Shown here piece by piece: positions 26,959 to 32,000 of a stretch of 32,000 bases of DNA (its first letter is position 1; each line of letters begins with the position of its first letter). Made by a program: the position numbers and the translations under genes. The DNA lies in contig JBAZYK010000005.1 of the NCBI GenBank assembly GCA_041659405.1, positions 31,796 through 63,795 on the forward strand, in the 5' to 3' direction. The notes below the pieces were generated by a model that worked only from the letters and a program-made list of their open reading frames with translations, did not search any database and was not told the origin of the DNA. This DNA is from Candidatus Altimarinota bacterium. GTDB lineage: Bacteria; Patescibacteriota; Gracilibacteria; UBA1369.

Positions 26959-27399
26959 CTATTGCGACTGAGAATTCTTCAGGAATTTTTCCGCTTTTTC
27001 GAGAATGTCTTTGGCGGTTTTGAAAGTTGTTTTCTCGTAAGCCTCTTTGTATGGAAGCCACAAATAGCCTTTGTGCTCAAAAGAAACCGTGATCTTTTTT
27101 TGAGTGGTTCGTGCCAGAAAGAAAGTTACATCTTTGGACATTTTCTGTGGTCCATGCATATAAATATAATTTATTTTTTCGCGAAAACCTTCGATCCAGA
27201 CGATTTTTTCTAAAGCTGTTTCTTCTTTTAGTTCACGATATGCGGCTTCGTGCTCGGTCTCGTCGCCTTCAATGTGTCCTTTGGCATAATCAAAATGGCC
27301 GCCCGGATAATGCAAAAGCAGATATTCCCTGCCCTCTTTAAGTTGGCGGAATATGATGATTCCGGCTGATCTTTCGTAGATGATGTTTGGATTTTCCAT
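26959..27399 (-). CDS. Nudix hydrolase (Ap4A-hydrolase-like)
   Basis: The Nudix box is GHIEGDETEHEAAYRELKEETAL. The protein is 146 aa. Confidence 0.85.
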   Translation of the reverse strand: MENPNIIYERSAGIIIFRQLKEGREYLLLHYPGGHFDYAKGHIEGDETEHEAAYRELKEETALEKIVWIEGFREKINYIYMHGPQKMSKDVTFFLARTTQKKITVSFEHKGYLWLPYKEAYEKTTFKTAKDILEKAEKFLKNSQSQ

Positions 27400-27469
27400 G
27401 AATTTCTTTTAGAATGCTCTTTGTTGGGCGAAAACACACGTATTGTAAAACTTTGCTTTTCATTTGACC

Positions 27470-28549
27470 ATGTTAACTGGACAAGAAAAAATTTCGGAGA
27501 TTATAAAGCGCTTTCCTAAGGCAAAAAAAACTTTGGCTCAATATGGTTTGACCATAGAGGCCGAGGAGCATTTTAAGTTTAAAAACCTGGTTTACGCGGC
27601 ACTCGTGCAAAAATTGCCTTTACGGAAGATTTTAACGGAATTGGGTGAAGTTACCGGTGAAAAAATCCGTGCATTAAACGTGCAGGGCTTGGAAAAGCCC
27701 ATGCAGCCGGGGTTTAGACATGGAACGCCAAAAGGAATTGGAAAAACTATTGTTGTGCATAGCGGCAAAGGTGGCGTTGGAAAAACGTTTGTGGCAGTAA
27801 ATTTGGCTGCGGCATTGGCTTGCAAGGGGTTTAAAGTGGGAATTTTGGACGGTGATGTGGATTGTCCGAATGTGATGGAAGTTTTAAAACTGAAGGGAAA
27901 AATGAAAGCGGATGCGGAGAAAAAAATTGTGCCGTTGGAGAAAATTTTTGCTCTAGCCAAAGGCAAGTCCCAACAGTTTGGCCTTAAAGTCGTTTCTATG
28001 GCACCTCTTTTGCAGCAGAATGATCAGCCGTTGATGTGGCGCGGTCCGGTGATTTCCCGTGTGATAGAGCAGTTTGTGCATGATGTGGCTTGGGGGGAGC
28101 TGGATTACCTTGTGGTTGATCTTCCTTCCGGAACCGGCGATGCGCCTTTAACTTTGCTGAATATTTTGGATCAGCCGAATTTTGTGGCCGTAACAACTTC
28201 GCAGGAGTTGGCGCAGTTGGATTGCAAAAAATCTCTTGGAATGGCTAAAAAATTAAACTTGAAGATTTTAGGCGTGATCGAAAATATGTCCGGGACGATT
28301 TTTGGCAAAGGTGGCGGTCTAAAAATCGCCAAAGAAATGAGTGGGACGGGCGCGGCGAGCAGGAGTGCGGAGGGATCAGAAAAATCGGTCAAAGGTAAGA
28401 CTGGTGTAAAAACGGTTGTGCCTTTTTTGGGAGCGATCGATTTAAAATCGGAATTTGCGAAATTGGATATCCATGGAAAACCGGCAGTGCTGCGGTCAAA
28501 AGCGCTTGCAGCAGTGTTTAATAAGATCATCGGAGCAATGAAACTTTAA
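27470..28549 (+). CDS. Mrp/NBP35/ParA-type P-loop ATPase with an extra N-terminal domain
   Basis: Deviant Walker A SGKGGVGKT, then VVDLPSGTGD and GVIENMS. I see no CxxC after ENMS, the position where ApbC/Mrp proteins normally carry it. The ATG at 27470 is preferred over the track's TTG at 27464. Confidence 0.75.
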   Translation: MLTGQEKISEIIKRFPKAKKTLAQYGLTIEAEEHFKFKNLVYAALVQKLPLRKILTELGEVTGEKIRALNVQGLEKPMQPGFRHGTPKGIGKTIVVHSGKGGVGKTFVAVNLAAALACKGFKVGILDGDVDCPNVMEVLKLKGKMKADAEKKIVPLEKIFALAKGKSQQFGLKVVSMAPLLQQNDQPLMWRGPVISRVIEQFVHDVAWGELDYLVVDLPSGTGDAPLTLLNILDQPNFVAVTTSQELAQLDCKKSLGMAKKLNLKILGVIENMSGTIFGKGGGLKIAKEMSGTGAASRSAEGSEKSVKGKTGVKTVVPFLGAIDLKSEFAKLDIHGKPAVLRSKALAAVFNKIIGAMKL

Positions 28550-28599
28550 ATCCTAGTTTCGACATGTTAAAATGGGCCGGCAGTTGGAAATTGGGGCAC

Positions 28600-28685
28600 G
28601 GGCGAGTGGCGAAATGGCAGACGCGCTACCTTCAGGAGGTAGTGATCGCAAGGTCATGGAGGTTCAAGTCCTCTCTCGCCCACCA
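28600..28685 (+). tRNA. tRNA-Leu (anticodon CAG)
   Basis: Acceptor GGGCGAG/CTCGCCC, anticodon stem CTACC/GGTAG with loop TTCAGGA, a 15-nt variable arm (class II), T arm GGAGG-TTCAAGT-CCTCT, discriminator A and encoded CCA. Track ORFs 28564-28779 and 28572-28757 are artefacts over it. Confidence 0.9.
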
Positions 28686-28736
28686 GATTTGCGCGGCAAA
28701 TCCGGCCCCGCCAAGGCGGGACCAAAAATCAACAAT

Positions 28737-29582
28737 CTACTCTTTTGGCTTTCTTAATTGCTTATTCACGTTACCTTGAAGGTAATTTCCCTTTGAAATA
28801 ACGCTTCTTCCGAGCTCTTTTTCTGTCTGCTTTCGTGCGCCACCTGCGACATTTCCACCCCGCTTGGCCACTTTTTTATGCTCTATCATTACTTTTGGCT
28901 TTTCCTTGTGGGAAATCTCCGTTGTTACTTTCTCCCCAAGCATTGTAAAAATCAGCTCCAGGTCGGTCATATTGTCCCTCAAATTTGCTTTGGATTTGTC
29001 AGGTATTTCTTTGTATTTTCTGTACTCATTCGGAGTCATGCCAAAAGTAGCCTTTGAAATTTCAGCGGTCAAAATTGCATAATCCTCCTCGTGCATAAGG
29101 CCCCGCTCTTTCCATTCATCCGTCAAATTCTGGCGGATCGCAATGCCACGCAAGCGTTTATCAATCCAGTCTTTGGAATAGCCCTTTTTCTCGTAAAGTT
29201 TCTTCATGCGCTCTTGTGCAAGTTCGGGATTTTCAATTTCATCCAGTCGCTCTTTTCCAACTTCGGCAAGCCACATTTTGAATGGTTCAGCTTTTTTACT
29301 CGGAATTGATTGTACCAGGCGAAATGCATTCTTGGTATTTACGCAGTCGGTAAGCCTTTCTTTCCCGTCAGTAGCTACAAGTTTCAACTGTCCCCAAATT
29401 GGGGACAGTTGAATTTCGATAAATTCCCTTTGTTTAACTTTTTCCCAATACTGCCTCGGCGTAGGGCTATCGGTAAGTGCTTCAATAATATCCACTACCG
29501 AATAAAACCACTCATCATTATGCCAAATTCGGCGGATCTTTTTTGATTGGAAGAGTACGAGCTTGTTTTGTCGATTGTCCAT
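28737..29582 (-). CDS. Bro-N domain protein (DinD / phage antirepressor-like)
   Basis: The N-terminus, FQSKKIRRIWHNDEWFYSVVDIIEALTDS...TKNAFRLVQSIPSKKAEPFKMWLAEVG, is a Bro-N pattern. The C-terminal half (NLRDNMTDLELIFTMLGE) resembles DinD-like proteins. Confidence 0.7.
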   Translation of the reverse strand: MDNRQNKLVLFQSKKIRRIWHNDEWFYSVVDIIEALTDSPTPRQYWEKVKQREFIEIQLSPIWGQLKLVATDGKERLTDCVNTKNAFRLVQSIPSKKAEPFKMWLAEVGKERLDEIENPELAQERMKKLYEKKGYSKDWIDKRLRGIAIRQNLTDEWKERGLMHEEDYAILTAEISKATFGMTPNEYRKYKEIPDKSKANLRDNMTDLELIFTMLGEKVTTEISHKEKPKVMIEHKKVAKRGGNVAGGARKQTEKELGRSVISKGNYLQGNVNKQLRKPKE

Positions 29583-29667
29583 AATTTTAGAAGTTAGAAA
29601 TAACTCATTTTATTTTTACCACACAAACATTAAAAAATTCTAAAATCTTTCTTAAATAAAAATGAAA

Positions 29668-29775
29668 ATAACCTGCACCGCGCCACGCCCCCGAAGAGCA
29701 TTATTCTGATTATCGGGATTGTTCCAATTGAAGTTGACCTGACGATTCTTCGGATTGAAATTACCGTAGGCGATT
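29668..29775 (-). repeat. DGR template repeat (TR)
   Basis: Hand alignment to the VR uses a constant offset of 524 nt with no gaps. In 29670-29775 there are 29 coding-strand adenines (T on +). Sixteen of them differ from the VR, and none of the 77 non-adenine positions differ. The sense strand reads GCC TAC GGT AAT TTC AAT CCG AAG AAT CGT CAG GTC AAC TTC AAT TGG AAC AAT CCC GAT AAT CAG AAT AAT GCT..., rich in AAY codons, which is the classical DGR design. Confidence 0.85.
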
Positions 29776-30140
29776 ATTGACCGGATGTGTCCGTAAACAT
29801 AAACGTTGTCGCAACAACGCCATGCGCATTGGTTTGCTTTTTCACCCTCTTTGTTGAGATGCATATCTCGGATTTACTTGAGAGTACAACCGGCTCAAAC
29901 GTGCAGGTTTATTTTCATGTAAAATGCTGGCACAAGCCCCTGCTTTTGCCCCGCCAGGGCGGGATGCTACGAAGCTTTTGAATGTGCCACCATTCAGCGG
30001 TAGCCTTAGACCACATTGCGACCATTCTATGGATTTTCAAGGATGACCACCGCTTGGCGGGGTCTTGGACAAGTCCAGGTTGCTATTCACCGACGTTGAA
30101 ATATTAATCCTTGATGTGAAAAAATTAAAGCTAAAATTAG

Positions 30141-30158
30141 GCCCCGCTGCGGCGGGGC
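30141..30158 (-). promoter_or_regulatory. GC hairpin 33 nt downstream of the VR (terminator of the target gene and/or DGR target-recognition hairpin)
   Basis: GCCCCGC-TGCG-GCGGGGC has a 7-bp stem and a 4-nt loop. On the coding strand it is followed by an A/T-rich tract. Confidence 0.55.
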
Positions 30159-30187
30159 TTAAGAAAAAGCAAAGATCAAATTTCAAT

Positions 30188-31654
30188 TTATAAAACCTGC
30201 ACCGCGCCACGCCCCCGAAGAGCAACATCCCGATTATCGGGATCGGCCCAATCGAAGGCGACCTGACGACGCTCCGGATCGAAATAACCGTAGGCGAATT
30301 TACTTATTTTAGAATTATGTTCTTGATTGAACATCGTCACTGTTTCTTGTGGCTGATCGTAAAAATCAATAATATGTTTTCCCGGATTTGACTCCCCATT
30401 CTTCTTTGCTTTCGCATAGGCACGCAGTGAGCGTTGCATGCCCATGGCATACTGATGGTCGTGTATAAGCTCCATTCCCTGTTCCTTGAAGTAGCTTTCA
30501 CAAACGCGTAGCTGTTCATCATTGCGCTGTTTTCTGGGTTGCTGCCCCGGAACAACCGCCGGACTTTGAACCATATCGACAATGCTGACGCCGACCTTTT
30601 TAGGACCTTCGGGCCATTCATAATCAGTTGCAAAATAAGCTCTATGCTGCTGCTCATAATGGCGATTTACATCCAAATCCATATCATCCTTCATTTCAGC
30701 AAAAGATTTATTGGCGGGTTCAATAATCAGTTCAGGTTTACCCATAATGGATGCTATCTTTTCAAGCTTTTTCGTACCCAGTTTTAAAATATTGGCAATA
30801 ACCTCTTCTTTGGAAGGCGCGACAATGTCCGGATCAAACTCTCTGGCCGTGGCAAGGGCTTCTTCATATCCACTGACAACACTAAGAAGTTTTTCTTTTT
30901 GTTCCGTGGTTAAACGGAGGCGATCAACGAATTGCTGATAATCTTTTTCTAATTTTGCTTCCACTGCTTTTTTAAAATATTCTCCATATGCGATTGGCCC
31001 GGTAGTTTCTATGCTTTTTGCGACACCATGACCAGCGCCTACCTCTGCTTTTGCACCCTGATTCGCCAATTCCAATACACGGGCAGATCTTTTAGCCACA
31101 AACTCACGAATATCAACAATTTTTCCTGTCTGATCAAGCTTTTCTTCCTGTTGCTGCAACGATCTGCGACCTTCAGCATCAAGCTTTGCCATTTTTTCAT
31201 CCCGCTCCGCTATGAGTTTCTCAAGCTGTTGCTGCACATGAAGAGTTTCGACGGCAATGTGCTTCTTCTCTGCTGTTGAAAGTACTGTGGGTTCGATTTT
31301 TTTAGATTTTGGCTCAGGTCGATCAACCAGCCATCGTGCGATTTTTAAAGGTGACTTGCTTAAGCTCAAAGCAACCCTTTTATGCCATGGAGATGCGGGT
31401 TTTTGCACCATGGGTATTTCCGGACTTTGAGGTTCATCTTCCAGACTTTCCATCAAATATTCATAATCATGGTGAAGGAGCTCAATCCTGGTTTCTAGAG
31501 CCATAATATCCTCCAATAGTTTTGATTGCTCGGCTTGAGTTAAAGAACCAGCAGTTTGATTTTTTTCGCCGGCTTGTGCGGTTTTCTGACCTTTTTCTCC
31601 TTCAGAATCTGAAACAGATAGATCGCCTGAATCCGCAGTATGTGGTTTTCCCAT
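30188..31654 (-). CDS. DGR target (variable) protein, 488 aa, otherwise uncharacterised
   Basis: Track ORF. The N-terminal half is charged and coiled-coil-like with no signal peptide. The C-terminus ...FAYGYFDPERRQVAFDWADPDNRDVALRGRGAVQVL carries the VR. Confidence 0.8.
   Translation of the reverse strand: MGKPHTADSGDLSVSDSEGEKGQKTAQAGEKNQTAGSLTQAEQSKLLEDIMALETRIELLHHDYEYLMESLEDEPQSPEIPMVQKPASPWHKRVALSLSKSPLKIARWLVDRPEPKSKKIEPTVLSTAEKKHIAVETLHVQQQLEKLIAERDEKMAKLDAEGRRSLQQQEEKLDQTGKIVDIREFVAKRSARVLELANQGAKAEVGAGHGVAKSIETTGPIAYGEYFKKAVEAKLEKDYQQFVDRLRLTTEQKEKLLSVVSGYEEALATAREFDPDIVAPSKEEVIANILKLGTKKLEKIASIMGKPELIIEPANKSFAEMKDDMDLDVNRHYEQQHRAYFATDYEWPEGPKKVGVSIVDMVQSPAVVPGQQPRKQRNDEQLRVCESYFKEQGMELIHDHQYAMGMQRSLRAYAKAKKNGESNPGKHIIDFYDQPQETVTMFNQEHNSKISKFAYGYFDPERRQVAFDWADPDNRDVALRGRGAVQVL
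30192..30299 (-). repeat. DGR variable repeat (VR), last ~35 codons of the target gene
   Basis: The VR sense strand reads GCC TAC GGT TAT TTC GAT CCG GAG CGT CGT CAG GTC GCC TTC GAT TGG GCC GAT CCC GAT AAT CGG GAT GTT GCT... Its 3' 31 nt (30194-30224, GC-rich: CTTCGGGGGCGTGGCGCGGTGCAGG) are identical to the TR, as expected for an IMH-like end. Confidence 0.85.
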
Positions 31655-31680
31655 AATTGTTTGTTTTAAGATTTCTGCTT

Positions 31681-31689
31681 ATTATAGCA
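31681..31689 (-). promoter_or_regulatory. Extended -10 element (TGCTATAAT) upstream of the DGR target gene
   Basis: The reverse complement of ATTATAGCA is TGCTATAAT. The -10 ends 26 nt upstream of the ATG at 31654. Confidence 0.35.
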
Positions 31690-31717
31690 TTTTTGGCTGT
31701 AATATGCCATGCAAAAT

Positions 31718-32000
31718 CTAAAAAATCATGATCAAATCCCCTAAATTAGTTCCGGTTGGGCCGGTTTTGATGAGGCCGTTTGTTTTTTTGAAAAAAGTGT
31801 AGGAGTCGTTGCGATTTAAAAAGTCGTCGATTTTTAAGTGTTGTTTTTGGGCTGACTGTAAAATGGCTTGATGGCCGATCGCTCCGGCGATTGGCTCGGG
31901 ACAGATGCCATCAACGCCGTCGGTGCCAATTGAAAGGATGCAGTAATTGGAAAGTGCAGAATCCGCAGAAGTGTTTTTTTTAAATTCGTTTTTGGCCTGC
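31718..32000 (-). CDS. MOFRL-domain protein (glycerate 2-kinase / hydroxypyruvate reductase-like), C-terminal fragment; the 5' part is beyond the window
   Basis: My minus-strand translation ends ...SIGTDGVDGICPEPIAGAIGHQAILQSAQ...NDSYTFFKKTNGLIKTGPTGTNLGDLIMIF* (stop is the complement of 31718-31720). GTDG.DG and TGPTGTN..D are MOFRL C-terminal motifs. Confidence 0.7.
   Translation of the reverse strand, partial: QAKNEFKKNTSADSALSNYCILSIGTDGVDGICPEPIAGAIGHQAILQSAQKQHLKIDDFLNRNDSYTFFKKTNGLIKTGPTGTNLGDLIMIF

Follow-up and report, generated by a model that had tools for sequence, protein, structure and literature searches.

A diversity-generating cassette, probably recently orphaned of its enzyme genes, in a Peribacteria-type bacterium

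We have analyzed a DGR cassette that consists of a target gene with its VR, a conserved structured RNA element and a TR, and that is accompanied by neither a reverse transcriptase (RT) gene nor an Avd gene. It lies in a stretch of 32,000 nucleotides (the window) from a Peribacteria-type bacterium within the candidate phyla radiation (CPR), which has a small genome; the assembly is a MAG of 1.51 Mb in 21 contigs and is 98.5% complete. Comparison with related cassettes indicates that this one was probably orphaned recently, through loss of its enzyme genes, and is now frozen. The features of the region are as follows.

28600-28685, plus strand: tRNA-Leu(CAG), which forms the conserved left edge of a slot with variable content (ARAGORN; Rfam tRNA, 53 bits)
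28700-28724, minus strand: GC-rich hairpin GGTCCCGCC-TTGG-CGGGGCC, with which the Bro-N gene ends (read from the sequence)
28737-29582, minus strand: Bro-N family gene, 281 aa (Pfam PF02498, E 7e-10; phrog_15286, E 3e-93)
29583-29662, minus strand: upstream part of the Bro-N gene, promoter or leader (blastn homology)
29670-29773, minus strand: TR core, 104 nt with 27 adenines
29774-30099, minus strand: conserved structured non-coding element directly 5' of the TR (11-locus alignment A6)
30141-30158, minus strand: hairpin GCCCCGC-CGCA-GCGGGGC with a 7-bp GC stem and a T-rich tail (terminator scan)
30188-31654, minus strand: DGR target gene, an open ORF of 488 aa with the VR at its C-terminus
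30194-30297, minus strand: VR, at the 3' end of the target ORF, coding for the last ~35 target residues
31681-31710, minus strand: promoter-like site upstream of the target, with the extended -10 TGcTATAAT (consensus scan, 10/12; a pattern match only)
31718-32000, minus strand: 3' end of a MOFRL gene of glycerate-kinase type, which forms the conserved edge on the right (Pfam PF05161, E 9e-21; syntenic with genome G001)

The VR and TR form a genuine DGR pair. They differ at 15 positions over 104 nt and all 15 fall at TR adenines, with a chance probability of about 1.6e-9; 15 of the 27 TR adenines are changed in the VR, and the 77 non-adenine positions are identical (77/77). Every change lies in codon position 1 or 2 of a TR AAY codon. 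L017, L065 and G045 have closely related TRs. VR and TR share a GC-rich 3' end, CTTCGGGGGCGTGGCGCGGTGCAGGTT, and their ends are identical as far as the homology reaches, so that no distinction between IMH and IMH* can be read from them. The 3' end of the TR, CTTCGGGGNCGTGGCGCGGTGCAGG, searched for as an exact string, had 0 matches in each of the genome, metagenome and viral collections.

The target protein combines a long helical N-terminal half with a conserved C-terminal domain of ~250 aa that ends in the VR. Fourteen homologues were found, several of them adjoining Avd and RT genes, and the variable columns of 15 target homologues coincide exactly with the VR. A Pfam search with the protein gave no match, a fold search with the full-length model returned nothing useful, no record of the exact protein was found across other assemblies, and a search of metagenome contigs for the family yielded two short contigs only. 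The model of the C-terminal domain has a pLDDT of 89.5, and its top Foldseek hits in the PDB are C-type lectin CRDs, although these matches are weak (E 0.19-0.8, TM 0.3-0.4). The hairpin at 30141-30158 lies ~35 nt past the VR, in a position like that of the DGR post-IMH stem-loop, and on its sequence is the predicted terminator of the target gene; hairpins with varied stems are found at the same position in L017, L065, G045, G016, G024 and G021. Service of remote targets in trans was also considered as the norm of this family and finds no support in the example of G016. This genome has seven target paralogs, yet its sole TR (contig C23) fits only the VR next to it and, weakly, a single paralog, for which 21 of 31 differences fall at A.

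No RT or Avd, fragments included, was found in the window or in the whole 21-contig assembly, and three methods agreed on this. Pfam RVT_1 gave 0 matches in the genome at E<=1; seven DGR RTs and two Avds from relatives, used as tblastn queries, gave no match in window or genome; and the best scores of lineage-specific HMMs against 25,980 six-frame ORFs were E 0.71 for RT and 0.31 for Avd. As a positive control, the same HMMs pick up RT fragments of ~55-75 aa in control loci. Genetic code 25 is expected from a Gracilibacteria affiliation. An alternative code was rejected here: ORFs of at least 200 aa under table 11 span ~82% of the genome and TGA is the stop codon of 139 of them, so the standard code applies and the RT search is unaffected by TGA. 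The MOFRL gene and the next genes past the window edge are syntenic housekeeping genes, with no RT among them. These results corroborate the original prediction, made from the window alone, that it contains no RT ORF and that the cassette has no adjacent RT or Avd, with a Bro-N gene and then tRNA-Leu after its TR. The genome-wide search for DGR-clade RTs that it had called for found none in the 21 contigs, and its suggestion that an RT elsewhere acts on the locus in trans therefore receives no support from the assembly. The assembly is a MAG in 21 contigs, and binning often misses mobile DNA.

The 370-nt spacer between VR and TR had been described as free of any credible ORF for an Avd. That is correct, but the spacer is not empty, as it holds the structured element of ~330 nt. 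RNAalifold on the 11-locus alignment predicts 49 pairs, 30 of which bear compensatory changes, compared with 8-13 covarying pairs in slid controls. Paired cells make up 92.5% in the element and 77.4% in shuffles, and none of 500 shuffles reached the observed value. The copy in the window matches 49 of the 50 positions that are invariant in the other ten loci and forms 48 of the 49 pairs. Its parts include the 15-nt signature AAWGCAAACCAATGC, a second invariant block GGTGAATAG, helix 4 (TTGAGCCGG::CCGGTCAA) and the block GCAAACCAATGC; the invariant blocks are common to several families of the order. An Rfam search with the element gave no match, and its motifs have no second copy elsewhere in the genome. 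We propose that the element is a scaffold of the DGR template RNA. Carriage of the element by phages was examined and rejected. The 15-nt signature occurs in at least 116 viral contigs, and the block GGTGAATAG is in none of the matches listed, in keeping with chance occurrence given the great size of the collection. A single viral contig, L164, has two weaker short motifs only.

In relatives the cassette has the order target-VR, terminator or hairpin, structured RNA of ~330 nt, TR, avd on the opposite strand, and RT; these homologous cassettes carry bAvd (PF22296) and RVT_1. The avd and RT genes directly follow the TR in L017-L019, G016:C23, G041:C39, G003:C56, G122 and G120. Across the order the cassettes form a series of decay states, from intact loci through frameshifted RTs, RT or avd fragments (G058, G062:C58, G124 and G123) and clean loss of avd-RT to bare RNA remnants. 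In G045 the RT is shredded to fragments and the avd next to it is intact. In L015, L068 and G050, which are 95-98% identical to the intact L017, a 680-nt deletion has taken the 3' part of the TR, avd and RT residues 1-64. Clean loss of avd-RT with VR, TR and RNA intact is seen at four loci: the one described here, G062:C1, G121:C69 and G174:C5. RVT_1 is entirely absent from 6 of 40 genomes that have the RNA signature, and many more have broken RTs. At loci of the order with dead RTs, 75-100% of the VR/TR differences are still at adenines, and such a pattern is thus no sign of current activity.

The point at which the present cassette departs from its relatives can be placed closely. Directly after the TR come the 7 nt ATTTTCA (29663-29669), which also stand in the tails of the L017 and L065 TRs; in those two loci the antisense avd stop codon is next. 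The cassette homology here ends ~8 nt after the TR. From the other side, blastn homology of the Bro-N upstream part reaches 29659 with G041:C33 and 29656 with a paralog on contig C10 of the same genome. The breakpoint between DGR and Bro-N module is therefore at about 29662/29663. The TR and the Bro-N ATG are 87 nt apart, in agreement with the predicted order of ~85 nt, Bro-N gene and tRNA-Leu, every element of which is where it had been placed. One explanation offered for this order, replacement of the RT by a phage-like gene, is supported, since avd-RT follow the TR in relatives and the Bro-N module starts ~8 nt past it.

The assignment of the Bro-N gene is secure (PF02498 score of 39.8 bits vs a gathering cut-off of 25.6). 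Its homologues in other genera (G024, G041) share 85-87% amino acid and 80% nucleotide identity with it, compared with only ~45-58% for the core gene Mrp in the same genomes, and the paralog on contig C10 (52%) adjoins HTH and PemK-like genes. On these sequence comparisons the Bro-N gene is a horizontally mobile passenger of phage type, which occupies the place of the relatives' avd-RT. It resembles the Bro-N or anti-repressor-like 'moron' genes of phages in its N-terminal Bro-N domain, in being a single-gene module with its own upstream region, in its patchy distribution and horizontal transfer, and in the location of its paralog in an HTH/PemK-like island. Unlike phage morons, it has no prophage context at this locus. 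No functional link between Bro-N and the DGR was found, and the Bro-N homologues in other genomes are not beside DGR parts.

The order NUDIX-Mrp-tRNA-Leu is kept in the same-genus genome G001 and in G007, G008, G006 and G013, and what follows the tRNA varies. As had been predicted, a MOFRL gene is found upstream of the target, starting at 31718. The synteny comparison proposed at the same time shows that in G001 the slot holds tRNA-Leu, a ZnuA-like gene and MOFRL and that the whole island is absent, which means that the region is under remodelling. On a 106-kb contig, the sequence on either side of the island is collinear with G001. The island has only two ORFs, Bro-N and the target, and no integrase, and the tRNA 3' end (25 nt, up to 3 mismatches) does not recur in the window. 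An island integrated at tRNA-Leu was rejected for want of both an integrase and an att repeat, although a presence/absence polymorphism beside tRNA-Leu is seen, as G001 and the other genera differ downstream of the tRNA. Of the earlier idea of a decaying remnant of a tRNA-Leu-integrated element, the decay fits the order-wide series and the integrated element does not hold.

A probable history, that of a cassette that has lost its enzyme genes, can be outlined as follows. The relatives show that the ancestral order was target-VR, hairpin, structured RNA, TR, opposite-strand avd and RT. Illegitimate recombination or an insertion-deletion in the T-rich stretch ~8 nt past the TR may have removed avd and RT, and the same event would have fused the TR to the mobile single-gene Bro-N module that abuts tRNA-Leu. 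The TR RNA is perhaps still made, but reverse transcription would no longer be possible; the VR would be frozen at the last variant written, and the target would now be evolving as an ordinary gene. The loss was presumably recent on an evolutionary scale, because drift is so far absent from the TR and the RNA scaffold as well as from the non-adenine VR positions.

The same preservation is the main counterpoint to this history. The TR, the scaffold and the non-A positions of the VR (0/77 differ) are no less intact than at loci with an RT, exactly what continued use by an RT in trans would predict. The cassette might accordingly still be active, its scaffold-TR RNA being used by an RT-Avd encoded on DNA outside the bin (for instance on a mobile element that escaped binning, in a co-resident strain or in a phage). 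The scaffold's invariant blocks span families, so a related RT-Avd could plausibly recognise it; a plasmid-borne avd-TR-brt works in trans and co-transcription of TR and RT is not needed (PMC5758913); and G121 has both a solo cassette and a complete DGR on a separate contig. We nevertheless consider continued activity unlikely. The 98.5%-complete assembly has no RT or Avd, every intact RT examined in the lineage sits by its own TR, with no case in the family of one serving a distant TR, and loci whose RT is demonstrably dead keep both the adenine bias and an intact scaffold, so that intactness is not diagnostic. Moreover, the viral contigs with the 15-nt signature (116 listed) all lack the block GGTGAATAG, and the DGR clade of Patescibacteria is almost entirely cellular (Roux et al., PMC8144416).

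The TR/Bro-N junction could also have arisen in assembly, or be confined to a minority strain, with avd-RT kept between TR and Bro-N in the dominant genome. It does lie in a T-rich, low-complexity stretch, and L017 on one side and L015, L068 and G050 on the other show that intact and deleted versions of a cassette, 95-98% identical, occur in public assemblies; RT-bearing and RT-less strains may coexist in the population, as with L017 and L015. We find this explanation quite improbable, since avd-RT would then be expected to turn up somewhere in the bin or where a contig ends and no fragment was found, both island flanks are collinear with G001 on the 106-kb contig, and three other genomes show comparable clean losses. 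It is more improbable still that the cassette was without its own RT from the start, as a solo satellite (target, scaffold and TR) copied from a complete DGR and serviced from elsewhere. Solo cassettes do recur in the order (G062:C1, G121:C69, G174:C5). However, the 7 nt past the TR still match the relatives' TR-avd junction region, and the host genome has no RT for the servicing. The solo TR of G174 adjoins a CCA-adding-enzyme-like gene and the RT of L017 is followed by a CCA-adding-enzyme gene, which points to deletion and not to the birth of a satellite.

The DGRs of Patescibacteria have been described as the 'CPR set' (Wu et al. 2018, PMC5758913) and as DGR clade 2 (Roux et al. 2021, PMC8144416). 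The present cassette agrees with them in host group (its relatives are labelled Candidatus Peribacteria, Peregrinibacteria or Gracilibacteria MAGs), in having one adjacent target with a C-terminal VR and AAY codons, in its chromosomal (cellular) location, and in the homology of target, TR and scaffold to cassettes with bAvd and RVT_1. It differs from them in that both the locus and the genome are without RT and Avd. Like the remote, trans-complemented targets of Treponema or Legionella type, which have no TR of their own and need a TR-RT located at another place in their genome (PMC5758913), it has a VR-bearing gene without a nearby RT; unlike them, it has its own TR and scaffold, in a genome without any RT. 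With the Bordetella phage BPP-1 (order mtd-VR, avd, TR, Sp, brt) it shares the adenine-specific flow from TR to VR, the GC-rich common 3' end and a GC hairpin shortly after the VR, and its relatives also have the Avd and RT partners. In BPP-1 avd is 5' of the TR, and 3' of it is a structured spacer RNA, by which bRT-Avd is recruited and cDNA is primed (summarised in PMC12875486). In this lineage, by contrast, the structured RNA is 5' of the TR, a convergent avd is 3' of it, and after avd comes the RT, with a start of its own. Past the TR, relatives carry avd in antisense, and in the window the RNA-TR part alone survives. The original prediction's mechanistic point about a missing RNA 3' of the TR presumed the Bordetella layout, and the structured RNA, here on the 5' side, is fully kept.

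The locus itself is an ordinary product of decay. A broader idea, which we offer tentatively and regard as rather doubtful, is that the ~330-nt element recruits RT-Avd and sets up priming. Scaffold and TR would then be a self-contained 'template RNA gene' that outlives the enzyme genes and could be reused by any incoming RT-Avd of the lineage; RT-less cassettes would be dormant, not dead, and it is avd-RT that would come and go. Published DGR surveys start at the RT, and RT-less cassettes have consequently gone uncatalogued and uncounted. For the CPR bacteria, the finding implies a fast turnover of DGRs, in which 'variable' proteins are often frozen variants and an adenine-only VR/TR pattern is no proof of activity. 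The covarying RNA 5' of the TR provides a testable handle on RNP assembly in non-Bordetella DGRs.

The locus is described below in transcription order, as window positions.

Elements of the cassette and its flanks
to 31718, minus strand: end of the MOFRL gene, first in transcription order
between the MOFRL gene and the target ORF, minus: promoter-like site
31654-30188, minus: target ORF, 488 aa
30158-30141, minus: GC hairpin 3' of the target ORF
between the GC hairpin and the TR, minus: non-coding stretch
29773-29670, minus: TR, a 104-nt repeat of the 3' end of the target ORF
between the TR and the Bro-N gene, minus: 87 nt of AT-rich DNA
29582-28737, minus: Bro-N gene
between the Bro-N gene and tRNA-Leu(CAG), minus: hairpin
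28600-28685, plus: tRNA-Leu(CAG)

The VR and TR differ at 15 positions, all 15 of them adenines in the downstream copy (the TR) and all in the first or second position of an AAY codon. Adenines make up 27 of the 104 nt of the TR. Because every difference falls on a TR adenine, a pattern with a chance probability of ~1.6e-9, the repeats are a genuine DGR VR/TR pair. The elements and differences re-derived here agree with the original prediction in coordinates and description.

That prediction saw no RT or Avd near the DGR, which holds for the whole assembly (G000; 1.51 Mb, 21 contigs, 98.5% complete; the window is G000:C5:31796-63795). Pfam RVT_1 had no match at E<=1 across the genome with stops read through, and tblastn with seven relatives' DGR RTs and with relatives' Avds had none in the genome or in 27000-32000. 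HMMs built from relatives' RTs and Avds, run against 25,980 six-frame ORFs of the assembly, gave best E values of 0.71 and 0.31, respectively; as a positive control, the same HMMs detected RT fragments of ~55-75 aa in decayed control loci (E 1e-9 to 1e-26). The genetic code is standard, so TGA hid no gene from the RT search. The RNA motifs of the cassette have no further copy elsewhere in the genome. Nor does an RT lie just past the window, where the genes are housekeeping ones collinear with the same-genus genome G001.

Fourteen homologues of the target protein were found. In the relatives L017-L019 (the L017 cassette is intact) the order is target-VR, ~430 nt of non-coding DNA, TR, bAvd on the opposite strand, RT and a CCA-adding-enzyme gene, with the end of bAvd 12 nt past the TR. 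The same target-VR/TR/avd/RT order is found on contigs G016:C23, G041:C39, G003:C56 (two targets), G122:C17 and G120:C33 of other genomes of the order. Synteny with homologous cassettes, a comparison that the original prediction had proposed for placing the RT, puts avd and then RT after the TR. The window TR closely resembles the TRs of L017, L065 and G045, and the 7 nt on its 3' side, ATTTTCA, are shared with L017 and L065. Past this motif the antisense stop codon of avd comes next in the relatives; in the window a different sequence begins, the Bro-N upstream region. Because blastn homology of the Bro-N module extends to 29659 (against G041:C33) and to 29656 (against a paralog on contig C10 of the same assembly), the DGR/Bro-N breakpoint lies at about 29662/29663, within T-rich sequence roughly 8 nt past the TR. 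In two different families a CCA-adding-enzyme(-like) gene comes directly downstream of the cassette: in L084 (G174:C5, 2476-3950) the TR abuts this gene and avd-RT is missing, and in L017 (8038-9348) the gene is 3' of the RT. This shared neighbour hints that the DGR site is old and has been kept by vertical descent.

The Bro-N module recurs in two other genera with 85-87% protein and 80% nucleotide identity, against only about 45-58% identity across genera for the core gene Mrp. The paralog (52% identical), in the region G000:C10:10371-15279, is flanked by a 210-aa ORF and an HTH (XRE-like) gene. A 556-aa protein is encoded further upstream, and the HTH gene is followed by one for a PemK/MazF-like toxin; this small region resembles a defence or mobile island. 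Since its identity is far above that of Mrp and its paralog stands beside HTH/PemK-like genes, Bro-N is a horizontally moving passenger gene and no component of the DGR. The G001 neighbourhood is collinear with the window on both flanks, and a ZnuA-like solute-binding gene (L053, G001:C15, 7919-8830; best G000 match on C13, 58% identity) replaces Bro-N/TR/target between tRNA-Leu and MOFRL. In other genera NUDIX-Mrp-tRNA-Leu is kept and the downstream content varies; the tRNA-Leu/MOFRL site is a variable slot. The proposal of a classical tRNA-Leu-integrated element found no support: the island has no integrase, and the tRNA 3' end has no second copy in the window.

As predicted, the VR-TR interval contains no Avd ORF, but it is more than a spacer, since it holds a conserved structured RNA. 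Its 3' two-thirds (30099-29774, minus strand; ~330 nt), here called the scaffold, show high conservation across 11 loci that belong to several families. Invariant are the blocks CGGTGAATAG, GGCTACCG, ACGTTTGAG and GCAAACCAATGC, a hairpin 5' of the TR, and a block abutting the TR, CCGGTCAA.

Scaffold copies (window and extracted loci; minus strand where marked)
window 29774-30099, minus
L017:6160-6504
L065:913-1258
L044:8160-8469, minus
L045:3292-3576
L025:3326-3589
L011:2728-3000, minus
L007:594-879
L012:642-875
L013:2810-3065, minus
L014:381-653

RNAalifold predicted 49 pairs, with compensatory changes in 30. Paired cells reached 92.5% (77.4 +/- 1.1% in shuffles) and covarying pairs 30 (18.4 +/- 2.3); none of 500 shuffles reached any observed measure, and a slid-partner control gave only 8-13 covarying pairs. 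The fold is specific to the TR-bearing strand because of its many conserved G-U pairs, and the scaffold has no match in Rfam. Of the 50 positions that do not vary among the other ten loci, the window copy retains 49, and it forms 48 of the 49 pairs; the likely cis-RNA is fully present. The Bordetella system has its structured RNA, which recruits bRT-Avd and primes cDNA synthesis, on the 3' side of the TR (PMC12875486). Here a structured RNA lies 5' of the TR, and the 3' side is occupied in relatives by antisense avd. The concern that priming RNA is missing is therefore not directly transferable. P0007, a homologue of the target in L016 (1843-2269), has only the first scaffold block (GGTGAATAGCAAC) after it and then an aspartokinase gene; this is another truncated remnant.

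A 15-nt signature of the scaffold, AAWGCAAACCAATGC, has 46 sites, spread over 40 of the 205 genomes of the order (reversed control, one match); RVT_1 is present in 84 of the 205. At about 27 of the 46 sites an RT lies no more than 1.5 kb away, and several of these RTs are split or truncated; six signature genomes have no RVT_1 at all (G000, G045, G058, G062 with two sites, G074 and G174). Sixteen sites at which Pfam detected no cis RT, taken with the other loci compared, form a graded decay series.

States of the cassette among genomes of the order
Intact, cut by contig end: G122, G120
RT split into two frames: G119:C65, G040, G021, G102, G202
RT and/or avd reduced to fragments: G045, G058, G062:C58, G124:C7, G124:C114, G123
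Deletion fusing scaffold or TR to a truncated RT: L015, L068, G050, G119:C64
avd and RT cleanly absent; VR, TR and scaffold intact: G000, G062:C1, G121:C69, G174:C5
Scaffold remnants alone: G074, G015:C8, G143:C5

The split RTs, in two overlapping frames (L013, G040:C6, 1330-2366; L014, G021:C45, 1065-2091; G102:C10; G202:C92; L088, G119:C65), could be frameshift pseudogenes, assembly errors or programmed frameshifts. Three assemblies (L015:7600-8400; L068:9100-10020; L022, G050:C19) share one 680-nt deletion (against L017:6490-8004), which takes out the 3' part of the TR, avd and residues 1-64 of the RT. These are 95-98% identical to the intact L017 cassette, so that intact and dead versions occur among near-identical assemblies. 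L044 (G045:C2, 7300-8055) keeps an intact avd, whose 115-aa product is 73% identical to the L017 Avd, while three fragments are left of its RT. Loci with a demonstrably dead RT remain adenine-biased, at 19 of 20 VR/TR differences in G045 (a genome without RVT_1), 16/16 in G124:C7, 16/17 in G058 and 16/21 in G174:C5. The window's adenine-only pattern thus shows that a DGR wrote the VR, and is silent on present activity.

In the predicted model of the target, the N-terminal half forms long helices at low confidence, and the C-terminal 259 residues form an alpha/beta domain ending in the VR strands (pLDDT 89.5). The best PDB matches of this domain are C-type lectin domains, with non-significant scores; a divergent C-type-lectin-like variable domain is plausible. 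G016 encodes seven paralogs of the target, only one adjoining a TR; the others include L046-L050 (contigs C27, C30, C32, C18, C15). These TR-less paralogs look like further frozen former targets, because the C23 TR fails to match most of them. A 445-aa ORF at G000:C6:92650-93159 (minus), 35% identical to target residues 165-333 and with no DNA match to the TR, is a non-variable paralog of the N-terminal/middle region.

Of the explanations first proposed, replacement of the RT by a phage-like gene is best supported, as TR homology to avd-RT cassettes breaks at the Bro-N module. The window probably holds a recently orphaned cassette: avd and RT would have been removed with the mobile Bro-N module in their place, and the VR would since have been frozen, with target gene, scaffold and TR so far without drift. 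That intactness also fits service in trans by an RT-Avd encoded on unassembled DNA, an explanation we regard as unlikely; no positive evidence speaks for it, and it is weakened by the almost entirely cellular nature of this DGR clade (PMC8144416) and by a scan of viral contigs. Of the 116 signature matches in that scan none has the second invariant block, GGTGAATAG, and one, L164, has only two weaker short motifs. An assembly error or a deletion carried by a minority of strains is improbable, and a cassette born as a solo satellite very improbable; the little probability left belongs to other explanations.

Published DGR surveys are anchored on the RT and list only putatively functional DGRs (PMC5758913). 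RT-less remnants are an expected class, of which the orphaned cassette of the window is one more member. Of most interest to DGR specialists are the order-wide decay series and the covarying scaffold RNA 5' of the TR.
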